64,000 nucleotides of DNA from Patescibacteria group bacterium (GCA_038064915.1 JBBTSB010000004.1:24874-88873); one strand, 5' to 3'; positions 2,398 through 61,598 are shown, counted from the first letter of the stretch. Numbers and translations are program-made. Notes: a model not told the origin generated them from the sequence alone.

Positions 2398-2985
2398 ATG
2401 ATTGGCTATCTTGCTGGCAAACTGCAGGCGATTACCCCAAAATACGCGATTCTTGACGTAAACGGCGTAGGCTATAGGGTGGTCATCGCAGAAAAAATGC
2501 ACTCTAGTCTAGCATCGGTAGGCGAAGAAATCAAGCTCTACACGCACTTTACGATGAACCCTCGGGATGGCCAAGTGGAGCTCTATGGATTTGCTACACA
2601 GGAAGAGTTGAGTTTCTTTGAACTGCTTACCAGTATTTCAGGCATCGGTCCCAAGAGCGCGCAAGGGATACTCGCCAAAGCCGAACTACAGCCATTACAG
2701 CTGGCAATCTTGCAGGGAGATGAAGTCTATCTCAAAAAAGTAGCAGGCCTAGGTCCCAAAACCGCCCAACGCCTCATCCTGGAACTCAAAGAAAAAATCG
2801 CCAGCGTCCACCTAAGTCCGGGCTCACAAGCAAACCTTACATCAGAATCCGAGGCGGTCGAAGCACTCATGGCCCTTGGATACTCGCAATATCAGGCACG
2901 AGATGCCTTGAAGCTCGTCGACTCCAAACTCGAAAAATCGGAGCACAAGATCACCGCGGCATTGAAAATATTGGCAAAAAAATGA
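2398..2985 (+). CDS. ruvA: Holliday junction DNA helicase subunit RuvA
   Basis: 195 aa; MIGYLAGKL start, OB domain and tandem HhH motifs (GIGPKSAQGIL, VAGLGPKTAQRLI). Confidence 0.9.
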   Translation: MIGYLAGKLQAITPKYAILDVNGVGYRVVIAEKMHSSLASVGEEIKLYTHFTMNPRDGQVELYGFATQEELSFFELLTSISGIGPKSAQGILAKAELQPLQLAILQGDEVYLKKVAGLGPKTAQRLILELKEKIASVHLSPGSQANLTSESEAVEALMALGYSQYQARDALKLVDSKLEKSEHKITAALKILAKK

Positions 2986-3818
2986 TTTCTTTTTTGCAAT
3001 CTGATGAGTGGGCGCAATTTCAAAGATCCCTTGGGCGGAAGGTTTTTGACGTCGAAGGCACAAAGGTGATTCGGCATGATTTGACGTTTAAAAAAAATTA
3101 CCTATATGTGCCGTACCCGGATACGGTGCCGAATTTGCTTCCATTGGCGGAGCAAGAAAAAAGCATTTTCATAAAAGCAGAGCCCATGCACGATGAAGTT
3201 GCTCAAGCGCTCGTGCATCAAGGCTATCAAAAATCATCCAAAAACGTCCAGCCACATCGGACCGTCGTACTTGATCTCACAAATAGCGAAGATGCATTGT
3301 TGAGCGCAATGCACCACAAGACGAGGTATAACATCCGCGTTGCGGAGCGGGAACATGTGGTCGTGGAGCAAAGCACGGATACTAATATTTTTTTGAGCTT
3401 AATGAAAAAGACTACCGCACGCGATAAATTTCACACACATTCCGAATGGTACTATCATCGCCTCATGGCATCTCGCGGATTGGATACAAAACTCTGGATC
3501 GCATGGCACGATGGCAAACCCATCGCCTCCGCTATCACGCTGACCTACGGCGATACGGCATATTATCTCCATGGTGCGTCAGACTACGAATATCGCTCTC
3601 TTATGGGCCCGTATCTTTTGCATTGGAAGATACTTTTAAACTTTAAACACTTAAACTTTAAACTTTATGATTTCTGGGGAATTGATGCAAAAAAATGGCC
3701 CGGCGTGACCCGATTCAAACTTGGCTGGGGAGGGCGGACAATCGAATATCCGGGGGCGTTTGATTTTGCTATTTCAAAACCTTGGTATTTTGCGTATACT
3801 TTATACCATGGATTATAG
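2982..3818 (+). CDS. FemAB-family peptidoglycan interpeptide aminoacyltransferase, copy 1
   Basis: 278 aa; FLQSDEWAQFQ N-terminus and C-terminal YYLHGASDYEYRSLMGPYLLHW...YDFWGI typical of FemX/FemAB; ATGA overlap with ruvA; contains the TTTAAAC repeat element. Confidence 0.75.
   Translation: MISFLQSDEWAQFQRSLGRKVFDVEGTKVIRHDLTFKKNYLYVPYPDTVPNLLPLAEQEKSIFIKAEPMHDEVAQALVHQGYQKSSKNVQPHRTVVLDLTNSEDALLSAMHHKTRYNIRVAEREHVVVEQSTDTNIFLSLMKKTTARDKFHTHSEWYYHRLMASRGLDTKLWIAWHDGKPIASAITLTYGDTAYYLHGASDYEYRSLMGPYLLHWKILLNFKHLNFKLYDFWGIDAKKWPGVTRFKLGWGGRTIEYPGAFDFAISKPWYFAYTLYHGL
3634..3667. repeat. TTTAAAC-heptamer repeat element, in frame in femAB copy 1
   Basis: TTTTAAACTTTAAACACTTAAACTTTAAACTTTA encodes LLNFKHLNFKL. 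Confidence 0.65.
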
Positions 3819-11247: not shown

Positions 11248-12367
11248 TTTTTGGTACGCAGTTGCCCTGCTCGTTGCTTCTATCATTGGCATAGGTTTTT
11301 TTGGCATACCGTACACCTTTGCGCAGACGGGATTTGGCATCAGCTTGATTATTTTTGTTGTGTTGACTGGTCTTGTTTTGCTTACGAGTCTGTTGTACGG
11401 AGAGGTCATCTTGCGGACACATAGCCGGCATCAATTTGTCGGTTTTGTACACGCCTATCTTGGGCCTTGGGCTCGCCGCATCAACCTCTTTACGTTTTGG
11501 GTTTCCGTTTATGGAGCTATTATCGGTATTTTGATTATTAACGGGCAGTTTTTGAGCACCATCATCGGCTCATTTGGTTTTCACATGAGTCCGGTTGCAC
11601 TCAGCATGGTGTTCTTGATACTTGCCACCATACTTGTATATGCGGGATTAAAAACTGTTTCTCATGTTGATTTTTTTGTGATGGTGGCCGCCATTGCGAT
11701 CATCCTGCTTCTGGTCATTGTGGGTATGCCGGAAATCAAGGCCGATCATTTTACGTTCGCCACCGGACTTCCTTGGTTTTTACCCTTTGGCGTGATTCTT
11801 TTTTCTCTCAATGGAACTCAGGGAATTCCTCTGGTTCGTGAAGCTCTCATTGGTAGAGAGCATTTATTTCGGCGGGCGCTTATGTATGGAACGCTTATTC
11901 CCGCTGGTGCTTACTTGATGTTCACGATTGCTGTTTTGGGTATCTCCGGTCCGGGAACCGTTCCCGAAGGAATTCCCGGTCTTGTCGGACATCTCGGGTC
12001 ATGGGTTGTTGTCATAGGGTCGCTTTTTGGCTTTCTGACATCATCAACTATTTTTCTGAGCATTGTCACTGCATTTCGTACCTCGCTTCGAGAAGATCTT
12101 CATTTGCGACGGCGGGGAGATTTTTTACTACCGCTTCTTCCGCCGGTGATTTTGTTTTTGCTTGGTGTGCAAAACTTTATTGAAATCATTGGTCTCGTTG
12201 GAGGAGTGGCAGTGAGCATTGATATGATCTTGCTCCTGTTCGTATACGCAAAAGCAAAAGATCATGGCACGCGCATTCCCGAATATTCCATGAATATCCC
12301 AAATTCTGTGCTCTATGGTATGATGCTCTTGTTCGCATGTGGCGCACTCTACACACTTATTGCTTGA
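11228..12367 (+). CDS. amino acid permease-like polytopic membrane transporter
   Basis: about 11 TM segments; resembles the aromatic/neutral amino acid transporter family; start uncertain (11207, 11228 or 11243). Confidence 0.5.
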   Translation: MNLGMNNFWYAVALLVASIIGIGFFGIPYTFAQTGFGISLIIFVVLTGLVLLTSLLYGEVILRTHSRHQFVGFVHAYLGPWARRINLFTFWVSVYGAIIGILIINGQFLSTIIGSFGFHMSPVALSMVFLILATILVYAGLKTVSHVDFFVMVAAIAIILLLVIVGMPEIKADHFTFATGLPWFLPFGVILFSLNGTQGIPLVREALIGREHLFRRALMYGTLIPAGAYLMFTIAVLGISGPGTVPEGIPGLVGHLGSWVVVIGSLFGFLTSSTIFLSIVTAFRTSLREDLHLRRRGDFLLPLLPPVILFLLGVQNFIEIIGLVGGVAVSIDMILLLFVYAKAKDHGTRIPEYSMNIPNSVLYGMMLLFACGALYTLIA

Positions 12368-13530
12368 GGTGGTTATTTCCGGTATTCGTTTTTTCCGTGC
12401 CTTTTCAGGCGCGTTTTGTTCTTGGATCGTGGACGCAACCCTTCAATGAATGGACGAGCGCGTTTTTGTGGGGAACGGATATTTTATTTGTTCTTCTCAT
12501 AATTTTCAATTTCCAATTTTCAATTTCCAAAAAAGACTTGTTGCTGTTTGCCTTTTTGGCAATCGCGGCGATTTCTATTTCCCAGGCTCTCATTCCCGCT
12601 GTTTCATGGTATCGGTTTGCGAAATTGCTTGAATACATACTTCTTTTTTTCTTCGTGCGGCAGCAAAAGCTTTCTCCACTCGTATACAAGGCCGTTGTGG
12701 CTTCAGCTCTATTGCAATCGCTGATCGCCATCGTCCAATATGTCGTTCAACATGATCTTGGCTTGCGCCTCCTTGGCGAGAGTGTACTTGATCCCCATGG
12801 TCAAGGCGTTGCGGTGGTCGCTGCAAATTCTCAGACGTACCTTCGCGCCTATGGCACGACGCCACATCCCAATATTCTTGCAACATGGCTCATGCTGGGA
12901 ATTTGGGCTCTGTGGGCATGGAGGCCAAAATGGCACCTATTCGTACTTCCTGTTTTGCTTGTTTCACTATTTCTGACTTTTTCCCGCACTGCCATCGCCG
13001 TGTGGGTCTTGTGTTCGATGATTATGTGGTTCTTTCACCGTCGAGACCCTCTCAAGATCATTGCGGTCACCGCTGTAGTTGGTTTTCTTTTCGCAATCAG
13101 TTTTTGGCCTCAAGTGTATTCTCGTTTACATATTTCTTCTAGCGATGAAGCTGTTTCGCAAAGAGTATTTTACAATGATATAGCCGGAAAAAATATACTA
13201 ACCGTTGGCAACGGCATTGGCCAGTTTGTTCCAAATCTTATGCAGAAGCTTCCTCTCTATCCTGATTTTATCTACCAGCCTGCGCACAATATGTTCTTGC
13301 TCATGATGAACGAAATAGGAATTTTGGGATTGGCAACTTTTTTACTATGGCTTTTTGTTGCTGTTCGGAAGTCTCACGTCTTGTTGGCAATTATCTTGTT
13401 GGCGGTATTTGATCACTATTTTTGGACACTTCAGCAAGGGGGATTAATCATGTGGGGATTGTTGGGATTTTTTGTTCGTGATAGAATACAAGAGCCAACT
13501 TATGAGCAAGAAAATCCTTCTATTTCCTAG
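12337..13530 (+). CDS. O-antigen ligase (Wzy_C/WaaL-like) family membrane protein
   Basis: polytopic protein with TFSRTA motif in a periplasmic loop; start uncertain; carries a tandem AATTTTCAATTTCC repeat in frame. Confidence 0.55.
   Translation: MWRTLHTYCLRWLFPVFVFSVPFQARFVLGSWTQPFNEWTSAFLWGTDILFVLLIIFNFQFSISKKDLLLFAFLAIAAISISQALIPAVSWYRFAKLLEYILLFFFVRQQKLSPLVYKAVVASALLQSLIAIVQYVVQHDLGLRLLGESVLDPHGQGVAVVAANSQTYLRAYGTTPHPNILATWLMLGIWALWAWRPKWHLFVLPVLLVSLFLTFSRTAIAVWVLCSMIMWFFHRRDPLKIIAVTAVVGFLFAISFWPQVYSRLHISSSDEAVSQRVFYNDIAGKNILTVGNGIGQFVPNLMQKLPLYPDFIYQPAHNMFLLMMNEIGILGLATFLLWLFVAVRKSHVLLAIILLAVFDHYFWTLQQGGLIMWGLLGFFVRDRIQEPTYEQENPSIS
12495..12522. repeat. tandem 2 x AATTTTCAATTTCC inside the waaL-like CDS
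   Basis: aattttcaatttcc aattttcaatttcc encodes IIFNFQFSIS; same 14-mer family as the groES-groEL spacer inverted repeat. Confidence 0.5.
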
Positions 13531-31615: not shown

Positions 31616-32420
31616 CCAAGCGCTCGGCCATCAGACATTCCGGGTCGGTGGTGTGCTTTGTATAAAAACGATTGCCCGTCGCGGGACGTTTTTACTTGTT
31701 CCCCATACACGGACGATCAATCAGGAAATCATCGAACTCGGGCGGAACGAGCACTGCGATTTTATCCGCGTTTGTCCGTTGACTCTCGATTCTCCGGAGG
31801 CACGTTTAAACTTTAAACTCTTAAACTTTAAACGTGCTCCTATTCACGTCCATCCGGAACACGCATGGATTGTGGAACTCAAGGATGATGAGACATTGTT
31901 TGCAGGTATGCGCAAAACCACACGCTACTCTATAAAAAAAGCACAAAAGGACGGAATAGTTGCCCACATCAGTACGGACCTTGAAGCATTTTGGAAGCTG
32001 TATATACTAACTGCTCAACGACAGCAGTTTGTGCCATTTTCGCGAAAGTTACTGGAAGCGGAATTCCAAGCTTTTGGAGACGATGCATTCATCGTCATGA
32101 CTGACCACGCCTCTGCATTTGTCGTGACAACGGAAGATGAAGCCTTCTATCATCATGGTGCATCAACCCATCACCCAACGGCTTCGTATCTAGTGCAATG
32201 GACGGCGATGCAGGAGGCACGGCGCCGCGGAAAGAAATTTTACAATTTCTGGGGGGTGTGGGACGATCCCCATTCACCGCAGTATGGATTGTCTCAATTC
32301 AAACGAGGCTTTGGAGGGTTTCAAGAATCATACGTGCCGACGCAAGATTTTATTTTGACAAAAAAATACTGGCTTAATTACATCATTGAAAAAATTCGCA
32401 AGCTACAAAGAGGATTTTGA
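31569..32420 (+). CDS. FemAB-family aminoacyltransferase, copy 2
   Basis: FLQSKAWEQ N-terminus and C-terminal YLVQWTAMQEARRRGKKFYNFWGV; start set at ATG 31569 to avoid overlap with the DegT gene; contains the TTTAAAC repeat element. Confidence 0.7.
   Translation: MHSGSFLQSKAWEQTNQALGHQTFRVGGVLCIKTIARRGTFLLVPHTRTINQEIIELGRNEHCDFIRVCPLTLDSPEARLNFKLLNFKRAPIHVHPEHAWIVELKDDETLFAGMRKTTRYSIKKAQKDGIVAHISTDLEAFWKLYILTAQRQQFVPFSRKLLEAEFQAFGDDAFIVMTDHASAFVVTTEDEAFYHHGASTHHPTASYLVQWTAMQEARRRGKKFYNFWGVWDDPHSPQYGLSQFKRGFGGFQESYVPTQDFILTKKYWLNYIIEKIRKLQRGF
31804..31833. repeat. TTTAAAC-heptamer repeat element, in frame in femAB copy 2
   Basis: GTTTAAACTTTAAACTCTTAAACTTTAAAC encodes RLNFKLLNFKR. Confidence 0.65.
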
Positions 32421-37389: not shown

Positions 37390-37424
37390 TTCCGTTCCAT
37401 TGAGCGGTCCAACCGCTCAACTGC

Positions 37425-37865: not shown

Positions 37866-38153
37866 ATGAAAATCAAACCACTTCATGACCGGGTGCTTCT
37901 CGAGGCGGTAAAAGAGGAGCGCAAAAAGGGCGGAATCATTTTGCCCGAGACGGTCGAAAAGGAACGTCCGCAGGAAGGTATCGTCATTGCCGTCGGTCCC
38001 GGCAAGTTTGACGAAGATGGGAAGCGTATGCCCATGACCCTCAAAAAGGGCGACAAGGTTTTGTTTACGAAGTATGGTCCATCAGAGGTCAAGGTGGACG
38101 ATAAGGAGTACTTGATAGCACGAGAAGACGATATTATAGCAGTAATTGAATAA
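37866..38153 (+). CDS. groES: co-chaperonin GroES
   Basis: 95 aa; MKIKPLHDRVL...IIAVIE. Confidence 0.95.
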   Translation: MKIKPLHDRVLLEAVKEERKKGGIILPETVEKERPQEGIVIAVGPGKFDEDGKRMPMTLKKGDKVLFTKYGPSEVKVDDKEYLIAREDDIIAVIE

Positions 38154-38155
38154 TT

Positions 38156-39877
<1,722 letters not shown>

Positions 39878-41457: not shown

Positions 41458-42390
41458 ATGGATATTCAAACAAAACCCAAGTCTGGTCCTCGCGACTTTT
41501 TTATACATTTACTGGGATTCGGGACGCTCTATGCAAGCGCGGTAAGTCTTATTTCACTTTGGTTTCAATACATCAATATCAAACTTCCTGATCCTCTGAA
41601 TCAATACTATTCATACGGATACGAGCAGCTTCGGGTGCCGATGGCGGTGCTTTTTGTGGTGTTTCCGGTATTTTTGTTTTTATCACGCTGGATGAACAGT
41701 AAGATCGCAGAGGATCCGGCAAGAAAAGAGCTTCGCATTTACAAATGGCTGGTGTACTTTACATTGTTTGTATCTGCGGTGACGGTAATCATCGATCTCA
41801 TCACGCTTATCTACAATTTTCTTGGAGGTGAGTTGACCGCACGATTCGGACTCAAGGTTCTCGTGGTGCTGATCGTAGCACTTGGCGTATTTGGCTATTA
41901 TCTGTGGAATTTGCGAGCTGATCTTGCGATGGCGCGAAGTAAACGCAAAGCGCTTTTTTGGGGAGCGATCGTGGCAATTGTCGGAAGCATCATTGCAGGA
42001 TTTGTGATTGTGGGTTCTCCTACGACAGCTCGAGCTCTGAGATTTGATGAGCGTCGAGTACAGGATTTGCAAAGCATCCAATGGCAAATTACCGATTACT
42101 GGCAGCGGACTGAAAAATTACCCACGGCACTTTCGGTGCTAGAAAATGAACTTGCTGGCTACACAAATCCTATGGATCCTGAAACGCAGGTTCTGTATGA
42201 GTATCGTGTAGTTAACCCACTCACGTTTGAATTGTGCGCAGTATTTACTACGGAAGGGACATGGCCGTCTAGGGAAAAATATCCTGCCGTTGTTCGTGTT
42301 CCGGAACAGTCGAATTGGAGCCACGAAGTCGGTCGTGCGTGTTTTGAAAGGACGATAGACCCCACACTCTACCCCAAGCCACTACGGTAA
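41458..42390 (+). CDS. membrane protein with 4-TM N-terminal domain and extracytoplasmic C-terminal domain (hypothetical)
   Basis: 310 aa; no confident family assignment. Confidence 0.45.
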   Translation: MDIQTKPKSGPRDFFIHLLGFGTLYASAVSLISLWFQYINIKLPDPLNQYYSYGYEQLRVPMAVLFVVFPVFLFLSRWMNSKIAEDPARKELRIYKWLVYFTLFVSAVTVIIDLITLIYNFLGGELTARFGLKVLVVLIVALGVFGYYLWNLRADLAMARSKRKALFWGAIVAIVGSIIAGFVIVGSPTTARALRFDERRVQDLQSIQWQITDYWQRTEKLPTALSVLENELAGYTNPMDPETQVLYEYRVVNPLTFELCAVFTTEGTWPSREKYPAVVRVPEQSNWSHEVGRACFERTIDPTLYPKPLR

Positions 42391-43559
42391 TGTTCGAGAT
42401 TCTCAAAAAAGATTCTAAATCAAACGCCCGTCTGGGCGTTTTGACGACACCGCATGGTGAGATCCACACGCCGGCGTTTTTGCCGATCGGTACCAAGGGT
42501 GCGGTGAAGGCGCTTACCAACGAAGAGCTCGTCGGCTTGGGCGCGGAAATCATCCTCGCAAACACCTACCACCTCATGGTGTCACCGGGAAGTGAAATCA
42601 TCCGCAAGGCAGGAGGGCTGCATAAATTTATGAATTGGGATCGGCCCATTTTTACGGACTCGGGTGGATATCAGGTGTTTAGTTTGGGTGAGAAAATCTC
42701 CTCCCGACCTCCCCTTAATGGTAAGGGGAGGAGCGAAGGGGATAGTGAAGTAGGAGCATTTAATAAAAAAATCAGCGAAGAAGGCGTGACGTTTCAATCC
42801 GGAATTGATGGGAGAGAGTTTACGCTTACTCCGGAGCATTCGGTGAAGGTACAGCAAGATCTCGGCAGTGATATCACTGTGGTGCTTGATGAATTTACAG
42901 GAGAAATTACCAATTATTTACGTGTAAAAGAAACCGTGGAGAGAACAACACGCTGGGCAAAGCGTTCCCGTGAGGCATTGAGAGGTGAAACCTCTCAATT
43001 GCAGTATGCGGTGGTGCAAGGGGCTATCTTTGAAGATTTGCGGAAACAGTCGGCGTTGGAATTGCGCGAAATGGATTTTGATGGGTATTGTATTGGCGGC
43101 GTGGCTGTGGGAGGAGAAACGAGTGAAGAGCAATACAAAGCAGTTGAGTACTCTCTTCCGCATTTGCCCGAAGACAAGCCTCGACATCTATTGGGCGTTG
43201 GTACTCCGGAGCAAATCATCGAAGCAGTAAAGCGCGGGATTGATACGTTTGATTGCGTCATTCCCACGAGAGAAGCTCGTCACGGGAAAATTTACTTAGG
43301 GGTGAAACCCCTAAACTCCGAATTGAGGGGTTTCACCCCTCAAACTTTGGACATCAGCAAAACAATTTTTAAAGAAGATTTTACTGCGCTCGATTCCACG
43401 TGTGACTGCGAAGCGTGTACGAAGTATACACGAGCCTATCTACATCATTTATTTAAATCCAGCGAAATATTGGCAATGCGACTACTCACGATGCATAATG
43501 TGAGATTTTATTTGCGACTTATGGAAAAGATACGGGAGGCGGTCGCCGCGTCGGGTTAG
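42390..43559 (+). CDS. tgt: queuine tRNA-ribosyltransferase
   Basis: GAVKALT, DSGGYQVFSL and zinc site CDCEAC...H; carries two extra in-frame segments relative to E. coli Tgt. Confidence 0.9.
   Translation: MFEILKKDSKSNARLGVLTTPHGEIHTPAFLPIGTKGAVKALTNEELVGLGAEIILANTYHLMVSPGSEIIRKAGGLHKFMNWDRPIFTDSGGYQVFSLGEKISSRPPLNGKGRSEGDSEVGAFNKKISEEGVTFQSGIDGREFTLTPEHSVKVQQDLGSDITVVLDEFTGEITNYLRVKETVERTTRWAKRSREALRGETSQLQYAVVQGAIFEDLRKQSALELREMDFDGYCIGGVAVGGETSEEQYKAVEYSLPHLPEDKPRHLLGVGTPEQIIEAVKRGIDTFDCVIPTREARHGKIYLGVKPLNSELRGFTPQTLDISKTIFKEDFTALDSTCDCEACTKYTRAYLHHLFKSSEILAMRLLTMHNVRFYLRLMEKIREAVAASG
42708..42731. repeat. GC-rich perfect palindrome inside tgt (in-frame insertion 1)
   Basis: CCTCCCCTTA atgg TAAGGGGAGG; lies within an extra ~22-codon segment (SSRPPLNGKGRSEGDSEVGAFNK). 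Confidence 0.6.
43298..43340. repeat. GC-rich perfect palindrome inside tgt (in-frame insertion 2)
   Basis: AGGGGTGAAACCCCT, 13-nt loop, AGGGGTTTCACCCCT; perfect 15-bp arms; encodes about 12 extra residues. Confidence 0.65.
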
Positions 43560-43583
43560 GACGGGCGACCGCTCTCGAGGGAG

Positions 43584-44492: not shown

Positions 44493-47205
44493 AAAATATT
44501 ACCAGCAACTCAACAAAGAACAGCGTCTTGCTGTAGATTCAATCGAGGGGCCGGTAATGGTGATTGCTGGTCCCGGCACGGGGAAGACGCAGATATTGAC
44601 GCTCCGCATTGCAAATATTCTCCAGAGAACGGATATTCCTGCGGAGGCGATTTTGGCAGTGACATTTACGGAAGCTGGTGTGATTGCGATGCGAAAACGG
44701 CTTACTGAAATCATCGGCTCACAGGCCTACGAAGTCAATATCAATACTTTCCACGGCTTTGCGCAAAACGTCATACAAACCTACCCCGAATCATTTCCTC
44801 GCATCATTGGCTCGGTAAATATCACGGAAGCTGATCAGATCCGTATCATGGAAGAAATTTTGGAAGAAACGAAGGGATTGAAAATTTTGCGTCCTTTTGG
44901 TGACCGCTTGCACTATCTACGCGACGCTTTGCACGCGATTCAAACTCTCAAACGCGAAGGCCTAAGCGTGGAAGATTTTGAAAAAATCGTGGAACAAGCA
45001 GCAAAGGCCTATGATCCTGAAGAAATCAATACAAAAGCAGAGCGTATCAAACTGGAAAAACAAATAGAAAAAAACGCCGAGCTCGCCACGATTTACGGCG
45101 AATACGAGAAAAGATTAACCAAAGAAAAACTCTATGATTTTGACGATATGATCACCGAAGTGCTTGCAGCACTAATGACGAATGATGAATTACGAATGAT
45201 TTTGCAGGAGCAATATCAGTACGTGCTCGTAGATGAACATCAGGATACGAACAACGCACAGAATAGGATCTTGGAATTGTTGATGAGTTATCATGATGAT
45301 CCCAATCTTTTCATAGTAGGCGATGAGAAGCAGGCGATTTTTCGATTTCAGGGCGCGAGTCTCGAAAACTTTCACTATTTTAAAAATAAATTTCCGGAAG
45401 CAAAGCTCATTACGCTCACTGAAAATTATCGTTCTACGCAATCAATTCTCGATGCGGTAGCTACAAAATTAAGAGCACTTGCTGGACACAAGGAAAAAAA
45501 AATTCAACTTCTTGAGGCCAGTGATTCAGATAGCGAACTCTTTACAATTGCCAAGCTCATTAAAGCAAATGAAAACAGCGCTGTGCTCTATCGCGATAAT
45601 CGTGATGTAATCCCACTTGCGAGGATGTTTGATAAGCTCGGCATTCCCTACCACATTGAGTCTGACCTCGATATTTTGACTGATCCCGACATCCGTAAGT
45701 TGCTTCTCATTTTTCATGCCATTGAGCAGTTTGACAAAAAAGTCATCTACCTTGATCTTTGGGGAGTCGATGCTTTTGAGGCAGAACAGCATCTTCCTCG
45801 AATCCAGAAGCAACTTTCTCTGTGGAAGACCGTGGCGTACAACAAATCGCTCTTGGAACTGTTCGATACGGTGGTGCAGGAGTCGGGTCTTCTCAAGTCT
45901 ATCTTAGCTCGGCCAGATGCAGTCGAAGCCATTGAAAAACTGTCGGTTCTTCTCGATCAAATCCGTCGCATGCTCGAGGTGCATCCGGGAGCGAATTTGC
46001 AGGATTTTTTGGCGCAGCTTGACCGCATGGATCGCCATAGACTATCCATCAAGGGCGCACTAGCCGGTGCGCATCCAGGAAAAGTACGTCTCATGACCGC
46101 ACATCGCTCCAAGGGTCTTGAATTTGACTATGTCTATGTTATCAATGCGTATGATGGACATTGGGGGAATCGAAAGCGAGTAGAGAAATTAAAGTTATTG
46201 ATACCAGAACAACAAGGCGCAGATGATGATCGCAATCTTTTTTATGTCGCTCTAACGCGCGCTCGCAAAGAAATCACTATTAGCTACGCAAAGATGTCTC
46301 TCGATCAGCGTGAGCAGATTCCATCACAGTTTATAGGAGAACTCAAGCAAGAATTAATCGAAAAAATCGAAGAAGAAAAGTTTGACAAACAAATACTATT
46401 TTCACCATCACGGCACACGGGAGCGACGGATATCAAGAATTTGGATTTTGTCAGAGAATTATTTAAGAAACGGGGTTTTGCGGTTACACACCTGAATAAT
46501 TACATCGAATGTCCCTGGAAGTATTTCTTTGTAAACCTGCTGCGCGTCCCCAAGGCCCCCGAAGCTCCGCAGATGTATGGAACAGCAGTGCATGCGGCGT
46601 TGAGCGATATTTTGAATGCCGAAACAAAATCAAAAACATATCTCATTAGTCAATTTAAAAAGCACTTAGCTGTTCAACACCTAAGTGTACATGAGCGGGA
46701 GGATTATGAGGAGCGCGGAGTGGAGGCGTTAGGGAAATATTGGGATGAATATCATGCAACATGGACAAATCCAGTGCTGACGGAGTATAAAATAAAGGGT
46801 GTAGAACTGACGTCTGAAATCTTGCTTACGGGGAACTTAGATAAAATAGAATTACTCAATGACCACGATGTAATTGTAACTGATTTCAAGACAGGCAAAC
46901 CAAAAAGCAGAAACGAAATTATGGGGAAAACTCGCACAGGTGATGCAAGCTATTATCGACAACTGGTCTTTTATAACTTGCTTCTGAATAAACACAAGAA
47001 CGGCATGTATAAAATGCAAGCAGGGGAATTGGATTTTGTTGAACACGGGAGGAAAGAGCAATTTCGAATTACGAATGACGAATGTCGAAATTTGGAAAAA
47101 GAAATTAAAAGAGTTGCAAACGAGATACTAAATCTCAAATTCTGGAACAAAAAATGTGATGAAAAAAACTGCGAATGGTGCAGTTTGAGGGGGATGATGA
47201 AGTGA
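44473..47205 (+). CDS. UvrD/PcrA-type helicase fused to a C-terminal Cas4/AddB-like PD-(D/E)xK nuclease with Cys cluster
   Basis: GPGTGKTQ Walker A, DEHQDTN, TAHRSKGLEFDYV helicase motifs; C-terminal DFKTGK...YYRQL nuclease core and Cys at C...C-x4-C-x2-C. Confidence 0.8.
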   Translation: MNLLDFKKYYQQLNKEQRLAVDSIEGPVMVIAGPGTGKTQILTLRIANILQRTDIPAEAILAVTFTEAGVIAMRKRLTEIIGSQAYEVNINTFHGFAQNVIQTYPESFPRIIGSVNITEADQIRIMEEILEETKGLKILRPFGDRLHYLRDALHAIQTLKREGLSVEDFEKIVEQAAKAYDPEEINTKAERIKLEKQIEKNAELATIYGEYEKRLTKEKLYDFDDMITEVLAALMTNDELRMILQEQYQYVLVDEHQDTNNAQNRILELLMSYHDDPNLFIVGDEKQAIFRFQGASLENFHYFKNKFPEAKLITLTENYRSTQSILDAVATKLRALAGHKEKKIQLLEASDSDSELFTIAKLIKANENSAVLYRDNRDVIPLARMFDKLGIPYHIESDLDILTDPDIRKLLLIFHAIEQFDKKVIYLDLWGVDAFEAEQHLPRIQKQLSLWKTVAYNKSLLELFDTVVQESGLLKSILARPDAVEAIEKLSVLLDQIRRMLEVHPGANLQDFLAQLDRMDRHRLSIKGALAGAHPGKVRLMTAHRSKGLEFDYVYVINAYDGHWGNRKRVEKLKLLIPEQQGADDDRNLFYVALTRARKEITISYAKMSLDQREQIPSQFIGELKQELIEKIEEEKFDKQILFSPSRHTGATDIKNLDFVRELFKKRGFAVTHLNNYIECPWKYFFVNLLRVPKAPEAPQMYGTAVHAALSDILNAETKSKTYLISQFKKHLAVQHLSVHEREDYEERGVEALGKYWDEYHATWTNPVLTEYKIKGVELTSEILLTGNLDKIELLNDHDVIVTDFKTGKPKSRNEIMGKTRTGDASYYRQLVFYNLLLNKHKNGMYKMQAGELDFVEHGRKEQFRITNDECRNLEKEIKRVANEILNLKFWNKKCDEKNCEWCSLRGMMK

Positions 47206-49280: not shown

Positions 49281-50924
49281 ATGTATGAACTCGCTCTCGT
49301 AGTCATTGTTGCCGCGCTTTTGGCGATCGTGATGCGCATGCTGAAGCAGCCGCTGGTTTTGGCATACCTCGCGACTGGCTTGCTGTTCAGTGCGCTGGGA
49401 CTGTACCACATCGCTTCCAATGAATCATTTTCCCTTCTCTCTGATCTTGGAGTGATGTTTTTGCTGTTTCTTGTCGGCCTTGAAATCAACTATACGTCGA
49501 TTAAAATGGTCGGAAAAACAGCCGTTCTCCTTGGCTTGGGGCAAATTCTCCTGACCTTCGGTGTGGGGTTTGTCATAGCGCTCCTGTTTCATTTTTCCAC
49601 CCTCACCGCGGCCTACATCGCCATCGCACTTACCTTTTCCAGCACCATCATTGTCGTAAAACTGCTTTCCGAGAAAAAAGATCTCAACAGTTTGTATGGA
49701 AAAATCAGTATTGGTTTTTTGCTCGTACAAGATTTTGTGGCGATTTTGTTGTTGGTCGTGCTTTCGGGAGGGCCACTTGTTTCTACGCTCATCAAGGGTG
49801 TAGTCCTCCTTGCGGTCATGTTTTGGCTTGGTCGCAAGGCGATTCCGCTCTTGTTTAACAAAATCGGCCGATCTCAAGAGCTTCTCTTCATCGTGAGCCT
49901 TGCCTGGGTGTTTGTGGTGACATCGATTGTTCAAAAGCTCGGCTTTTCTGTGGAGATTGCGGGATTTCTCGCGGGTATCGGCCTTGCAAACTCCTATGAA
50001 AACTTTCAAATTGCAAGCCACATACGCCCACTGCGAGACTTTTTCATACTCATTTTCTTTGTGATGCTGGGGGCTTCGATCACGTTCTTTAATTTTGCTG
50101 GTCTTGGCTGGCCTATTATCATTTTTTCACTCTTTGTTCTCATTGGAAATCCGCTCATCGTCCTTGTTCTTATGGGACTTACTGGGTATCGGCGAAGGAC
50201 GAGCTTTATGACAGGCATCACGATGGCGCAGGTTTCGGAATTTAGCCTTATTCTTGCTGCTCTTGGTTTTAAGCTCCACCACATCAATGAGCAGGCCGTG
50301 GGTTTGATCACTGCAGTGGGAGTCATCACCATTGTTGTATCAACGTATCTCATTATCCACGGTGATTCTATTGTACAAAAACTATGGCATATGTTGGCTG
50401 TCTTTGAAAAATTGGATCCGTTGAGCGAAGACGGTTTTGCTTCGATGGAGTTTCACCGACCCACGATTCTTATCGGTGCCCAGCGAATTGGCCACATCAT
50501 AGCTTCACATATTCGAAAAGACGAGCTTTTGATCATTGATTTTGATCCGTCGGTTGTCGAGCGGTTTAAGAAACACGGCTATGCATGTTTGCTTGGCGAT
50601 ATTTCCGATCGCGATATTTTTGAAAAGGCCAATTTTGACGAGAGTAAGCTCGTCATTTGCACGAGTCCGGATGTGCAGGACAACTTGTCTTTGTTAACGC
50701 AGCTAAGGCACACCAAAGGTCCCCGGAAGATTATTTTGCGAGCGGACAATGATCATGATTCCACGATTCTTTACAAAAAAGGCGCTGACTATGTCATCCG
50801 GCCGCATCTGACTTCAGGCCATTATATTGGAGAAATTTTGGGCAATAAGGAAGAGCGCGACCGCTCCCTCTGGCACGCCCGAGAAAAAGATTTTAAGATT
50901 GTCTCAAGAGAACTACAACATTAA
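49281..50924 (+). CDS. CPA2-family cation:proton antiporter with C-terminal RCK/TrkA-N domain (Kef-type)
   Basis: about 12 TM segments followed by a Rossmann-like RCK domain. Confidence 0.8.
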   Translation: MYELALVVIVAALLAIVMRMLKQPLVLAYLATGLLFSALGLYHIASNESFSLLSDLGVMFLLFLVGLEINYTSIKMVGKTAVLLGLGQILLTFGVGFVIALLFHFSTLTAAYIAIALTFSSTIIVVKLLSEKKDLNSLYGKISIGFLLVQDFVAILLLVVLSGGPLVSTLIKGVVLLAVMFWLGRKAIPLLFNKIGRSQELLFIVSLAWVFVVTSIVQKLGFSVEIAGFLAGIGLANSYENFQIASHIRPLRDFFILIFFVMLGASITFFNFAGLGWPIIIFSLFVLIGNPLIVLVLMGLTGYRRRTSFMTGITMAQVSEFSLILAALGFKLHHINEQAVGLITAVGVITIVVSTYLIIHGDSIVQKLWHMLAVFEKLDPLSEDGFASMEFHRPTILIGAQRIGHIIASHIRKDELLIIDFDPSVVERFKKHGYACLLGDISDRDIFEKANFDESKLVICTSPDVQDNLSLLTQLRHTKGPRKIILRADNDHDSTILYKKGADYVIRPHLTSGHYIGEILGNKEERDRSLWHAREKDFKIVSRELQH

Positions 50925-51834
50925 GAAGTTTCTCAACTTCCTTGAGACTGTCGAGGTCGTGAATTGAAATTAGCAGAGGGTTTAAATGTTTAAAAGTTTC
51001 AAGTTTAAAGTTAGGAACTAAGTCGCTTTTGGTAACAAAAATATATTCCGGTTTTTCTAAGAGTTTTTTGTTGAATGTCGCAAGTTCCGAGCGTACTATT
51101 TCGTAGTCTTTTTCCGGGTGAGGGGAATCTGCGGCAATACAGTGAAAGAGCACTTTAGTGCGTTCTATGTGGCGCAAAAATTTAATTCCCAATCCTTTGC
51201 CACTCGACGCACCTTCAATGAGCCCCGGGATATCTGCGAGAATAAGTCCGCCATGCCAAACGCCAAGATTCGGTTCCAGCGTAGTAAACTGATAGTTTGC
51301 AACTTTGCTTTTAGCGTTGGTGAGTTCATTGAGAAGACTCGACTTACCGACATTGGGTAGACCGATGAGGCCGACATCGGCGATCAGTTTGAGCTCAAGG
51401 CGGATGGTATACTCTTCTCCTTTTGTGCCAGGTTCAAACTCCTTGGGACTTGTGTTTTCGGGACCTCGAAAGTGAAAGTTGCCACGGCCTCCTTTACCGC
51501 CTTGGGCGATCATGACGCGCTCGCCGACTTTGGTGATTTCGATATTTTTGGGATGGACTACCGTACCCACGGGAACTTTTAAAACTAAATCTTCCCCTCG
51601 AGGTCCATCCACAAATTGCCCACGGCCATTGCCACCATCCTGGGCTTTCCAGTCTTTTTTATTGCGAAATTGGTAGAGCGCCCCTAAATCTGAAATTCCT
51701 TCCAGGTACACGCTTCCACCGTGTCCGCCTGAACCACCCACGGGGCCGAGGGATTTCATGTTGGAGTTAAATGCAACCTTTCCATTACCACCGTTGCCGG
51801 CCTTTACGTTGATTGTCACGTCATCAATAAGCAT
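50893..51834 (-). CDS. obg: GTPase Obg/CgtA
   Basis: N-terminal Gly-rich Obg fold (GNGGNGKVAF...GGSGGHGGSV) and G1-G5 GTPase motifs; C-terminal tail contains the TTTAAAC repeat. Confidence 0.9.
   Translation of the reverse strand: MLIDDVTINVKAGNGGNGKVAFNSNMKSLGPVGGSGGHGGSVYLEGISDLGALYQFRNKKDWKAQDGGNGRGQFVDGPRGEDLVLKVPVGTVVHPKNIEITKVGERVMIAQGGKGGRGNFHFRGPENTSPKEFEPGTKGEEYTIRLELKLIADVGLIGLPNVGKSSLLNELTNAKSKVANYQFTTLEPNLGVWHGGLILADIPGLIEGASSGKGLGIKFLRHIERTKVLFHCIAADSPHPEKDYEIVRSELATFNKKLLEKPEYIFVTKSDLVPNFKLETFKHLNPLLISIHDLDSLKEVEKLLNVVVLLRQS
50979..51012. repeat. TTTAAAC-heptamer repeat element (reverse orientation), in frame in the obg C-terminal tail
   Basis: GGTTTAAATGTTTAAAAGTTTCAAGTTTAAAGTT; the minus strand encodes NFKLETFKHLNP. 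Confidence 0.55.
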
Positions 51835-61547: not shown

Positions 61548-61553
61548 GTTATT

Positions 61554-61590
61554 AAGGTTCGACCTTAATGAAGTCTCAAGGTCGAACCTT
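61554..61590. other. perfect 13-bp hairpin downstream of hup
   Basis: AAGGTTCGACCTT, 11-nt loop, AAGGTCGAACCTT; no U tract on the + strand. Confidence 0.4.
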
Positions 61591-61598
61591 AAAATCCC

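Follow-up and report, generated by a model that had tools for sequence, protein, structure and literature searches.

A REPIN-like double hairpin in frame within tgt of a Patescibacteria bacterium and the hairpin-repeat family to which it probably belongs

The 64,000-nucleotide stretch of DNA analysed here (the window; Patescibacteria group bacterium, GCA_038064915.1 JBBTSB010000004.1:24874-88873) carries tgt, the gene for tRNA-guanine transglycosylase, whose reading frame holds a 48-nt element made of two inverted hairpins. The encoded Tgt protein is identical to one annotated in a Patescibacteria metagenome-assembled genome. A preliminary description of this DNA had reported a palindrome with perfect 15-bp arms, AGGGGTGAAACCCCT at 43298-43312, then spacer aaactccgaattg, then AGGGGTTTCACCCCT at 43326-43340, in frame between the RHG and CxC motifs; its sequence, coordinates and position proved correct. 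The arms stand as a 15-bp palindrome, and what had been overlooked is that each of them is itself a hairpin. The element resembles a REPIN, a doublet of repetitive extragenic palindromic (REP) sequences, and its parts are as follows.

42390..43559, + strand: host gene tgt (tRNA-guanine transglycosylase), 389 aa
43296..43343, + strand: REPIN-like doublet of two self-complementary inverted hairpins, in frame in tgt, LGVKPLNSELRGFTPQ, net gain of 12 aa
43296..43314, + strand: doublet hairpin 1, TTAGGGGT-GAA-ACCCCTAA; including the flank, ACTTAGGGGT-GAA-ACCCCTAA
43315..43322, + strand: spacer ACTCCGAA, 8 nt, separating the doublet hairpins
43323..43343, + strand: doublet hairpin 2, TTGAGGGGT-TTC-ACCCCTCAA

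The hairpins are 19 and 21 nt long, with perfect stems of 8 and 9 bp and 3-nt loops. Because hairpin 2 is the reverse complement of hairpin 1 with one additional G:C pair, the doublet can adopt either a pair of small hairpins or a single long fold. The palindrome is beyond chance. By our own arithmetic, about 0.001 perfect 15-bp inverted repeats with a spacer of at most 20 nt are expected per 64 kb; the 15-mer of the doublet, allowing up to 3 mismatches, matches the window 5 times where 0.93 matches are expected, a count attained by none of 100 shuffles. Folding of the 48 nt gives -17.7 kcal/mol as DNA (z = -6.0) and -28.4 kcal/mol as RNA (z = -5.0), and in both cases 0 of 200 shuffles were as stable. 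No direct repeats border the doublet (tac/TTAGGGG...CCTCAA/act), and scans of the window with Rfam 15 and for tRNA and tmRNA returned no match at the gathering score.

At the protein level, the earlier estimate of about 12 extra residues is borne out by an HMMER alignment to Zymomonas mobilis TGT, which has a 12-residue gap precisely at the doublet. In the AlphaFold model of Tgt (mean predicted local distance difference test, pLDDT, 86.7) the insert, after the RHG motif and before CxC, is a loop joining strands 300-303 and 318-321, and its residues are modelled at pLDDT 82-84. The doublet lengthens a Tgt surface loop after RHG by 12 residues and is most likely a tolerated passenger rather than an adaptation of the enzyme. 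A second assembly of the same population contains a Tgt variant (P0121) with a C-terminus frameshifted from residue 385 and an identical doublet.

We compared 34 Tgt sequences from related bacteria of the candidate phyla radiation (CPR), seven of them also as DNA, and found that they vary chiefly at three loops. The closest relative of the window Tgt (84% identical) lacks the insert at the doublet site, and several other close relatives are likewise without the segment, while two more distant relatives bear the same doublet with the central stem base altered together in all four arms: the window arms read AGgGGT/ACCcCT, those of the other carriers AGcGGT/ACCgCT and AGtGGT/ACCaCT, with similar spacers (ACTCCGGA and GTTCGGGA). 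The preliminary description had considered that the extra residues might be conserved in relatives with non-palindromic DNA; in the carriers the DNA is palindromic. One relative has a single hairpin with a 21-nt interruption at this site, and others have a non-palindromic insert or an (AATTNCC)n heptamer repeat. In a neighbour-joining tree built without the variable columns the three doublet carriers form no clade and their nearest neighbours are empty at the site, which is therefore dynamic. In P0003, at tgt site C (L121:7995-8039), a 21-nt imperfect palindrome appears to interrupt a family hairpin, TTGAGCGGT-TCA-ACC / CTGCCTACCGGCCAGGCGGGC / GCTCAA, which suggests a nested event.

The doublet is not alone on its contig. 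About 82 kb could be read, namely the 64-kb window and some 18 kb of flanks (8-10 kb on each side) from contig CAYHVA010000003.1 (GCA_964360345.1), which contains the window. Within it the family comprises nine hairpins at seven places, six of the nine within genes; the places beyond the doublet are these.

42977..42999, + strand: single family hairpin in tgt (site B), ATTGAGAGGT-GAA-ACCTCTCAAT, encoding ALRGETSQL, no net insertion
46664..46686, + strand: one-mismatch family hairpin, ACTTAGCTGT-TCA-ACACCTAAGT, within a uvrD-like helicase gene and in its frame (HLAVQHLS)
37400..37420, no strand assigned: intergenic single hairpin TTGAGCGGT-CCA-ACCGCTCAA, upstream of groES, followed by a terminator-like hairpin
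61551..61592, no strand assigned: intergenic doublet ATTAAGGT-TCG-ACCTTAAT / AAGGT-CGA-ACCTTAA
L205:14641-14661: copy in an epimerase gene, 3 kb beyond the window, 21/21 nt identical to doublet hairpin 2
Just outside the window, same contig: guaA copy, TTGAGGTGT-GAA-ACACCTCAA

The window has the core AGNGGT-NNN-ACCN'CT at four positions (the doublet pair, 42977-42999 and 37400-37420), with N and N' complementary every time. The hairpin at 37400-37420 is identical to the site-B hairpin in the tgt orthologue of L001, and the doublet at 61551-61592 begins 4 nt past the stop codon of the HU gene (ctGTAGgtt). The identical 21-mer in the epimerase gene means that the palindrome is not unique in the genome, uniqueness having been named as what would speak against a dispersed element, and together with the in-frame copies in other CPR genes it upholds the proposed coding-tolerant family. 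Counting every perfect hairpin whose stem has 8 bp or more, the window shows a modest excess (21 versus about 14 in shuffles), and the signal resides in the family and not in hairpins generally; tgt, at 1.8% of the window length, holds 5 of these 21.

We scanned species-representative genomes (one per species) with the pattern TTGAGNGGTNNNACCNCTCAA; the counts refer to the matches listed, and taxon proportions are inexact. The scan gave at least 124 sites, and N and N' are complementary in 85 of the 124 listed against 25% expected. Among these matches 26 sites are from CPR bacteria; 11 of 22 complementary CPR sites lie inside open reading frames (ORFs) of at least 150 aa, and the in-ORF CPR copies use solely the two stop-free frames. 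Their hosts include PurD (two copies), MiaA, MurD, TruB, an E1beta-E2 fusion and RsmA. In MiaA two hairpins together encode VKPLLSGSTAQ, which resembles the peptide of the tgt doublet. Family members follow the consensus (C)ACTT[G/A]G-NNNN-triloop-NNNN-C[C/T]AAGT(G), and there are GTAG, TTAG, TGAG and TTGAG variants; variation is free, and compensated, in the loop and the 4 inner bp.

Repeats outside CPR bacteria were noticed as well. Multicopy repeats with the same 21-mer and conserved flanks occur in Mailhella (L016, L020, L056, L062, L088, L101, L113), WOR-3 (L073, L075, L105) and Calothrix (L006, L011, L029); an example reads TTGAGGGGT-TTY-ACCCCTCAA followed by ACTCCCC(ACCAA). A Cytophagales contig (L094) has a distant Y1 homologue adjoining a hairpin copy. 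In Acidobacteriota and others (L019, L074, L089, L114, L077; L013, L061, L119) a conserved element TATACCACGCAA-TTGAGCGGT-NNN-ACCACTCAA has a non-complementary central pair, and it may be a different structured element caught by the pattern.

A link to a candidate enzyme comes from genomes in which the hairpins surround a Y1_Tnp (IS200-like) gene. On a Campbellbacteria contig they lie directly before the start of such a gene and across its stop codon, with two extra hairpins within the gene and two others about 7 kb off. A Saccharibacteria contig has a like arrangement with the flanking pair inverted, and the loci L004 and L054+L091 represent such hairpin-flanked Y1 genes outside the genome of the window. 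The CPR Y1 protein matches Pfam PF01797 Y1_Tnp (E = 1.3e-7; 32.2 bits, cut-off 23), and the HUH motif (HYH/HFH) and a YVNLN tyrosine can be seen in its alignment. We then considered 80 metagenomic loci, not assigned to taxa, with relatives of this protein, and scored perfect stems of 8 bp or more, taking as flanking those up to 200 nt 5' or 250 nt 3' of the gene. A hairpin is present on the 5' side in 56/80 loci, on the 3' side in 52/80, on both sides in 39/80 and inside the gene in 61/80. Hairpins of one locus share their stem, and 51 of the 80 loci have at least two identical-stem hairpins. Triloop hairpins across these loci number 202 compared with about 9 in shuffles, and the density is 1.89 per kb near the Y1 gene, 0.16 per kb elsewhere (a 12-fold difference) and about 0.03 per kb in shuffled sequence. 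Across all loci compared, 16 of 24 same-stem doublets are inverted, and at several loci inverted doublets flank the Y1 gene or sit within it; doublets flanking one gene resembling those for RAYTs (REP-associated tyrosine transposases; L195) have CCGAA-containing spacers. At stem positions -8 to -5 the Y1-locus hairpins have a foot T[T/G][A/G]G (T 66%, T 80%, G/A 81%, G 80%); the window copies have TTAG and TGAG, and GTAG occurs in L002 and several further loci.

A covariance model built solely from Y1-locus hairpins was run on the window. Its top hit is 43294-43316, that is, doublet hairpin 1 (21.6 bits, E 0.0012), and its second 42977-42999 in the same gene (18.8 bits, E 0.009); the next distinct hits are, in order of rank, 46664 (17.6 bits, E 0.02), 61549, 37399 and 43322 (15.2 bits, E 0.12). 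The hairpin that flanks a Y1/RAYT-like gene also recurs in frame within the gene itself (L125-L204, 61/80 loci; for example L140:2931-2967 and L137:2919-2955). Two positions are used repeatedly, one of them directly after the YVNLN tyrosine motif, where peptides such as H.LRGPTSQ or HQLGGSTSKLV are encoded.

We therefore think it probable that the 48-nt element is a REPIN-like doublet of a hairpin-repeat family widespread in CPR bacteria, with a Y1 enzyme as the likely agent. By analogy with REP/RAYT systems, the enzyme would recognise the folded single-stranded hairpin together with the foot sequence, and would generate or maintain the hairpin copies. With scant intergenic space in CPR genomes, copies would persist mainly in genes, read in one of two stop-free frames (L[R/S]G.T[S/A/P]Q or.EG..PS.) and placed in variable surface segments.

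Several observations sit uneasily with this interpretation. In the roughly 82 kb of contig no Y1/RAYT-like gene was found, either by tblastn of the window with the CPR RAYT-like protein or by look-up of the flanking genes; NCBIfam REP_Tyr_transpos, with a cut-off of 80 bits, gives the CPR Y1 protein a score of just 26; and the 80 loci on which the association was quantified have no assigned taxa. The foot T[T/G][A/G]G takes part in the pairing of the stem, unlike the unpaired GTAG guide of classical REPs. Two relatives have unrelated palindromes at tgt site B, a perfect 40-nt one, ATCGGTAATAAGTTATCATA/TATGATAACTTATTACCGAT, at L003:1040-1077, and a 36-nt one with one mismatch, GCTTGAATAAAACCGCAT/ATGCGGATTTATTCAAGC, at L124:3974-4009, while the L123 palindrome at that site scores as a family member (23 bits). 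A further point, which was unexpected, concerns length. The doublet and the first of the two tgt inserts noted earlier (see below) are real additions; seven other in-gene sites aligned to solved homologues, namely tgt site B, the epimerase, GuaA, both PurD copies, MurD and the MiaA doublet, show no net length gain. The uvrD-like site is also length-neutral, since orthologues with and without the hairpin are equally long and have similar residues there (HLA.QPLS). In the epimerase the left arm TTG AGG GGT GAA encodes a native LRGE motif (cf. 4zrm 'mLRGEevhifGDGE'). The preliminary term insertion is thus apt for the doublet, which adds 12 aa, and fails for the family in general. Transposition by cut-or-copy-and-paste does not predict the eight length-neutral in-gene sites, which rewriting in place, for example by hairpin-templated copying, does predict, and as most single in-gene copies are length-neutral over native segments, simple insertion may not explain their spread.

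A tentative way of accommodating these sites, which we would not call likely, is that the CPR hairpins spread in genes mainly by replacement, native coding stretches being rewritten in place without change of length. Copying templated by a hairpin, or else short-patch conversion, in either case with a link to the Y1 HUH protein, could bring this about; the survivors would be only those products with a tolerated peptide, and the tgt doublet would represent one rewritten hairpin plus its inverted duplication. If replacement is true, orthologous CPR genes would record the birth of REPs, which is still unknown for classical REPs.

A rival explanation has palindromes made in place, coding sequence already present being turned into perfect palindromes in the course of replication or repair by hairpin-templated template switching or short inverted duplication, with no mobile element or dedicated enzyme, the likeness among copies reflecting which palindromes survive selection. 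The seven sites and the uvrD-like site overlying native segments, the native LRGE of the epimerase and the unrelated palindromes at site B (40 nt in L003, 36 nt in L124) all favour such a process, and the joint change of all four doublet arms is what repeated arm-to-arm copying would be expected to give. Yet it accounts neither for a foot motif, stem length and triloop common to hundreds of loci nor for identical 21-mers in unrelated genes of one genome, and it leaves unexplained why genes with nothing in common, in different CPR classes, carry the same hairpin, as well as the 12-fold concentration and matching stems on both sides of the Y1 HUH gene. We regard it as unlikely in this pure form and keep the REP/RAYT-type identity, because in-place rewriting alone does not explain the consensus, the identical copies and the clustering at Y1 genes. 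Another proposal is that the hairpins are motifs accumulating by biased uptake or recombination drive, like DNA uptake sequences, through tolerated point changes. CPR bacteria rely on imported nucleotides, in-gene copies are length-neutral, and identical copies and inverted pairs exist, all in line with it. The free but compensated variation of inner stem and loop fits a structure-specific partner, not a sequence-specific receptor, and the tight association with Y1 HUH genes would be unexpected, which makes this proposal highly improbable.

Two further explanations look to the host gene itself. The hairpins might be functional tgt mRNA structures (serving, for instance, mRNA stability, its processing or a pause in translation) that selection on RNA folding maintains, given the five of 21 perfect hairpins that fall in so small a part of the window, the strong fold and the pairing kept by compensatory changes at orthologous positions. 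The same hairpins, however, occur in many unrelated genes, in intergenic DNA and on either strand relative to transcription; the doublet is absent from close relatives, no Rfam family matches, and one-mismatch family hairpins have 5 G.T, 13 A.C and 23 other mismatches, so wobble is not favoured. With the hairpins this dispersed, the doublet missing in close relatives and no G.T excess, a tgt-specific mRNA structure has very little to recommend it. Alternatively the 12 residues could be an adaptive beta-hairpin extension of Tgt, for instance for tRNA or partner contact, with the DNA palindrome incidental; the insert does lie between two strands at pLDDT 82-84, and similar peptides (VKPLNS.L.GFT) recur in three orthologues. 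But the palindrome sets the peptide sequence, peptides of these types also appear in unrelated enzymes, the closest relative and many others do without the insert, and in other lineages the loop holds unrelated sequence, including a heptamer repeat. An adaptive extension is quite improbable because the palindrome dictates the peptide and the loop content is unrelated in other lineages.

Two more specific candidates were rejected. Miniature inverted-repeat transposable elements are 70-300 bp long with terminal inverted repeats of 15-30 bp and a target-site duplication; ours measures 48 nt, with single copies of 19-23 nt, and has no flanking direct repeat. An intrinsic terminator, which would be a G+C-rich hairpin with a run of T after it, placed downstream of a gene, was dismissed since the doublet lies inside the tgt ORF, the next sequence being AAACTTTGGAC.

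Other repeats of the window should be kept apart from the family. The preliminary description had joined both tgt inserts into one family; the first belongs to a different one.

42708..42731, + strand: hairpin of the first tgt insert, CCTCCCCTTA-ATGG-TAAGGGGAGG (PPLNGKGR)

This first insert adds about 23 aa, which are predicted to be disordered (AlphaFold, pLDDT below 50). This other hairpin family has the form CC(T/C)CCCCTTA-loop-TAAGGGG(A/G)GG, gives PPL..KGG-like peptides and is present at 42696-42743 of the window and at L124:7146-7169, L163:1162-1184, L172:953-975 and L123:10214-10238, in frame in tgt (at another site in L123), in a uvrD-like gene and in further long ORFs. Nor did the supposed echo of TTTAAAC units in CTAAACTC and CTCAAACTT survive, as the TTTAAAC arrays are tandem repeats of a heptamer, distinct from the hairpins and not related to them in sequence. 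There are three of them, of about 4 copies each, at 3635-3667, 31805-31833 and 50980-51012; two are within ORFs (2982-3818 +, 50893-51834 -) and the intergenic one is framed by the inverted repeat GGAGGCACG...CGTGCTCC. AATTTCC/AATTTTC arrays lie at 12501-12530, near the start of ORF 12337-13530, and at 38152-38180, between groES and groEL. At L122:10892-10930 the heptamer repeat (AATTNCC)n occupies, in frame, the tgt loop that houses the doublet in the window. A suspected enrichment of GTGAAAC/GTTTCAC in the window was discarded (11 observed, 9.8 expected).

Within tgt two further hairpins were noticed. One, GCGGTCGCC...GGCGACCGC, spans the stop codon (43539-43573). The other, AAACGCCC-GTCT-GGGCGTTT at 42422-42441, covers codons 11-19 (S/N-K/A-A-R-L-G-L/V-L) and has counterparts with different stems, TCAAAAGCCCG-NCT-CGGGCTTTTGA, in the orthologues at L121:7149-7173, L122:10034-10058 and L124:3473-3497; as the hairpin is retained with other stems, the K>N and L>V changes are coupled via the palindrome.

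In the literature searched, whose coverage was limited, we found no report of REP/RAYT systems or in-frame palindromes in Patescibacteria/CPR. The family is REP/REPIN-like, with no earlier report found for Patescibacteria, and intragenic REPs are already known in other phyla (PMC3733652). Few repeats are as common in bacteria as REPs with their RAYT partners, and the mechanism of their dissemination is unresolved even for E. coli REPs (PMC8266576). A REP-like family residing mostly in the genes of ultra-small CPR genomes offers many orthologue pairs with and without a copy, in which the creating event, insertion or in-place rewriting, is directly readable. It accounts for part of the odd extra or hypervariable loops of CPR proteins and should warn annotators of repeat-derived segments, and it means that repeats acting at the DNA level drive coupled amino-acid changes in essential enzymes.

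How the family relates to known systems can be seen from several comparisons. Quasipalindrome correction or template switching, as described by Ripley and by Loytynoja and Goldman, produces perfect hairpins and seemingly simultaneous compensatory changes at constant length. The length-neutral copies and the coordinated four-arm change resemble it; unlike that general mutational process, the CPR family has a consensus and a link to a specific gene. The palindromic element RPE-1 of Rickettsia is about 100-150 bp long and is not known to have an associated transposase. An RPE-1-type element was rejected for our 48 nt on grounds of size, its units being 19-21 nt and its family, unlike RPE-1, being linked to a Y1 gene. 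The likeness to RPE-1 (PMC3733652) lies in palindromic in-frame repeats in functional genes of a reduced genome, at protein-surface positions. In Opitutus terrae, Thauera and Rickettsia conorii (RPE-4/6), intragenic GTAG/CGTC REPs likewise occur as in-frame singles and dimers, in genes whose proteins are known (PMC3733652); some genes hold two, dimers encode 20-30 aa and many hosts act in replication or repair, paralleled here by the uvrD-like gene copies. Those REPs are described as added residues, whereas here the doublet alone is a clear addition (+12 aa) and singles replace native segments; phylum and consensus also differ.

As in the insertion sequences IS200/IS605 and their palindrome-associated derivatives (PMC6006769), where a Y1 HUH enzyme acts on subterminal single-stranded hairpins with a foot tetranucleotide as guide, a Y1 gene is accompanied by hairpins. 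In contrast to the ends of a multicopy insertion sequence, and in the manner of REPs, the CPR hairpins are also scattered at a distance from the Y1 gene and on further contigs of the genomes concerned. In build the family corresponds to REP/REPIN-RAYT systems (PMC3116915, PMC3337134, PMC8266576, PMC6006769), with short stem-loop repeats and frequent inverted doublets foldable into a longer hairpin; dispersal through the genome, a conserved foot tetranucleotide and, as in the 'REPtron', a Y1 HUH gene bracketed by the same hairpins (for the CPR family, in other genomes) are probably common to both as well. The two differ in several ways: CPR stems are perfect, of 8-12 bp with 3-nt loops, and the foot is paired in the stem, unlike the unpaired guide of REPs (PMC3733652, PMC6006769); REPs are mainly extragenic, whereas six of the nine contig hairpins and about half of the complementary CPR matches listed are inside genes; CPR Y1 genes bear in-frame copies of their own, and most single in-gene copies are length-neutral; and the CPR Y1 protein scores under the NCBIfam cut-off for RAYTs.

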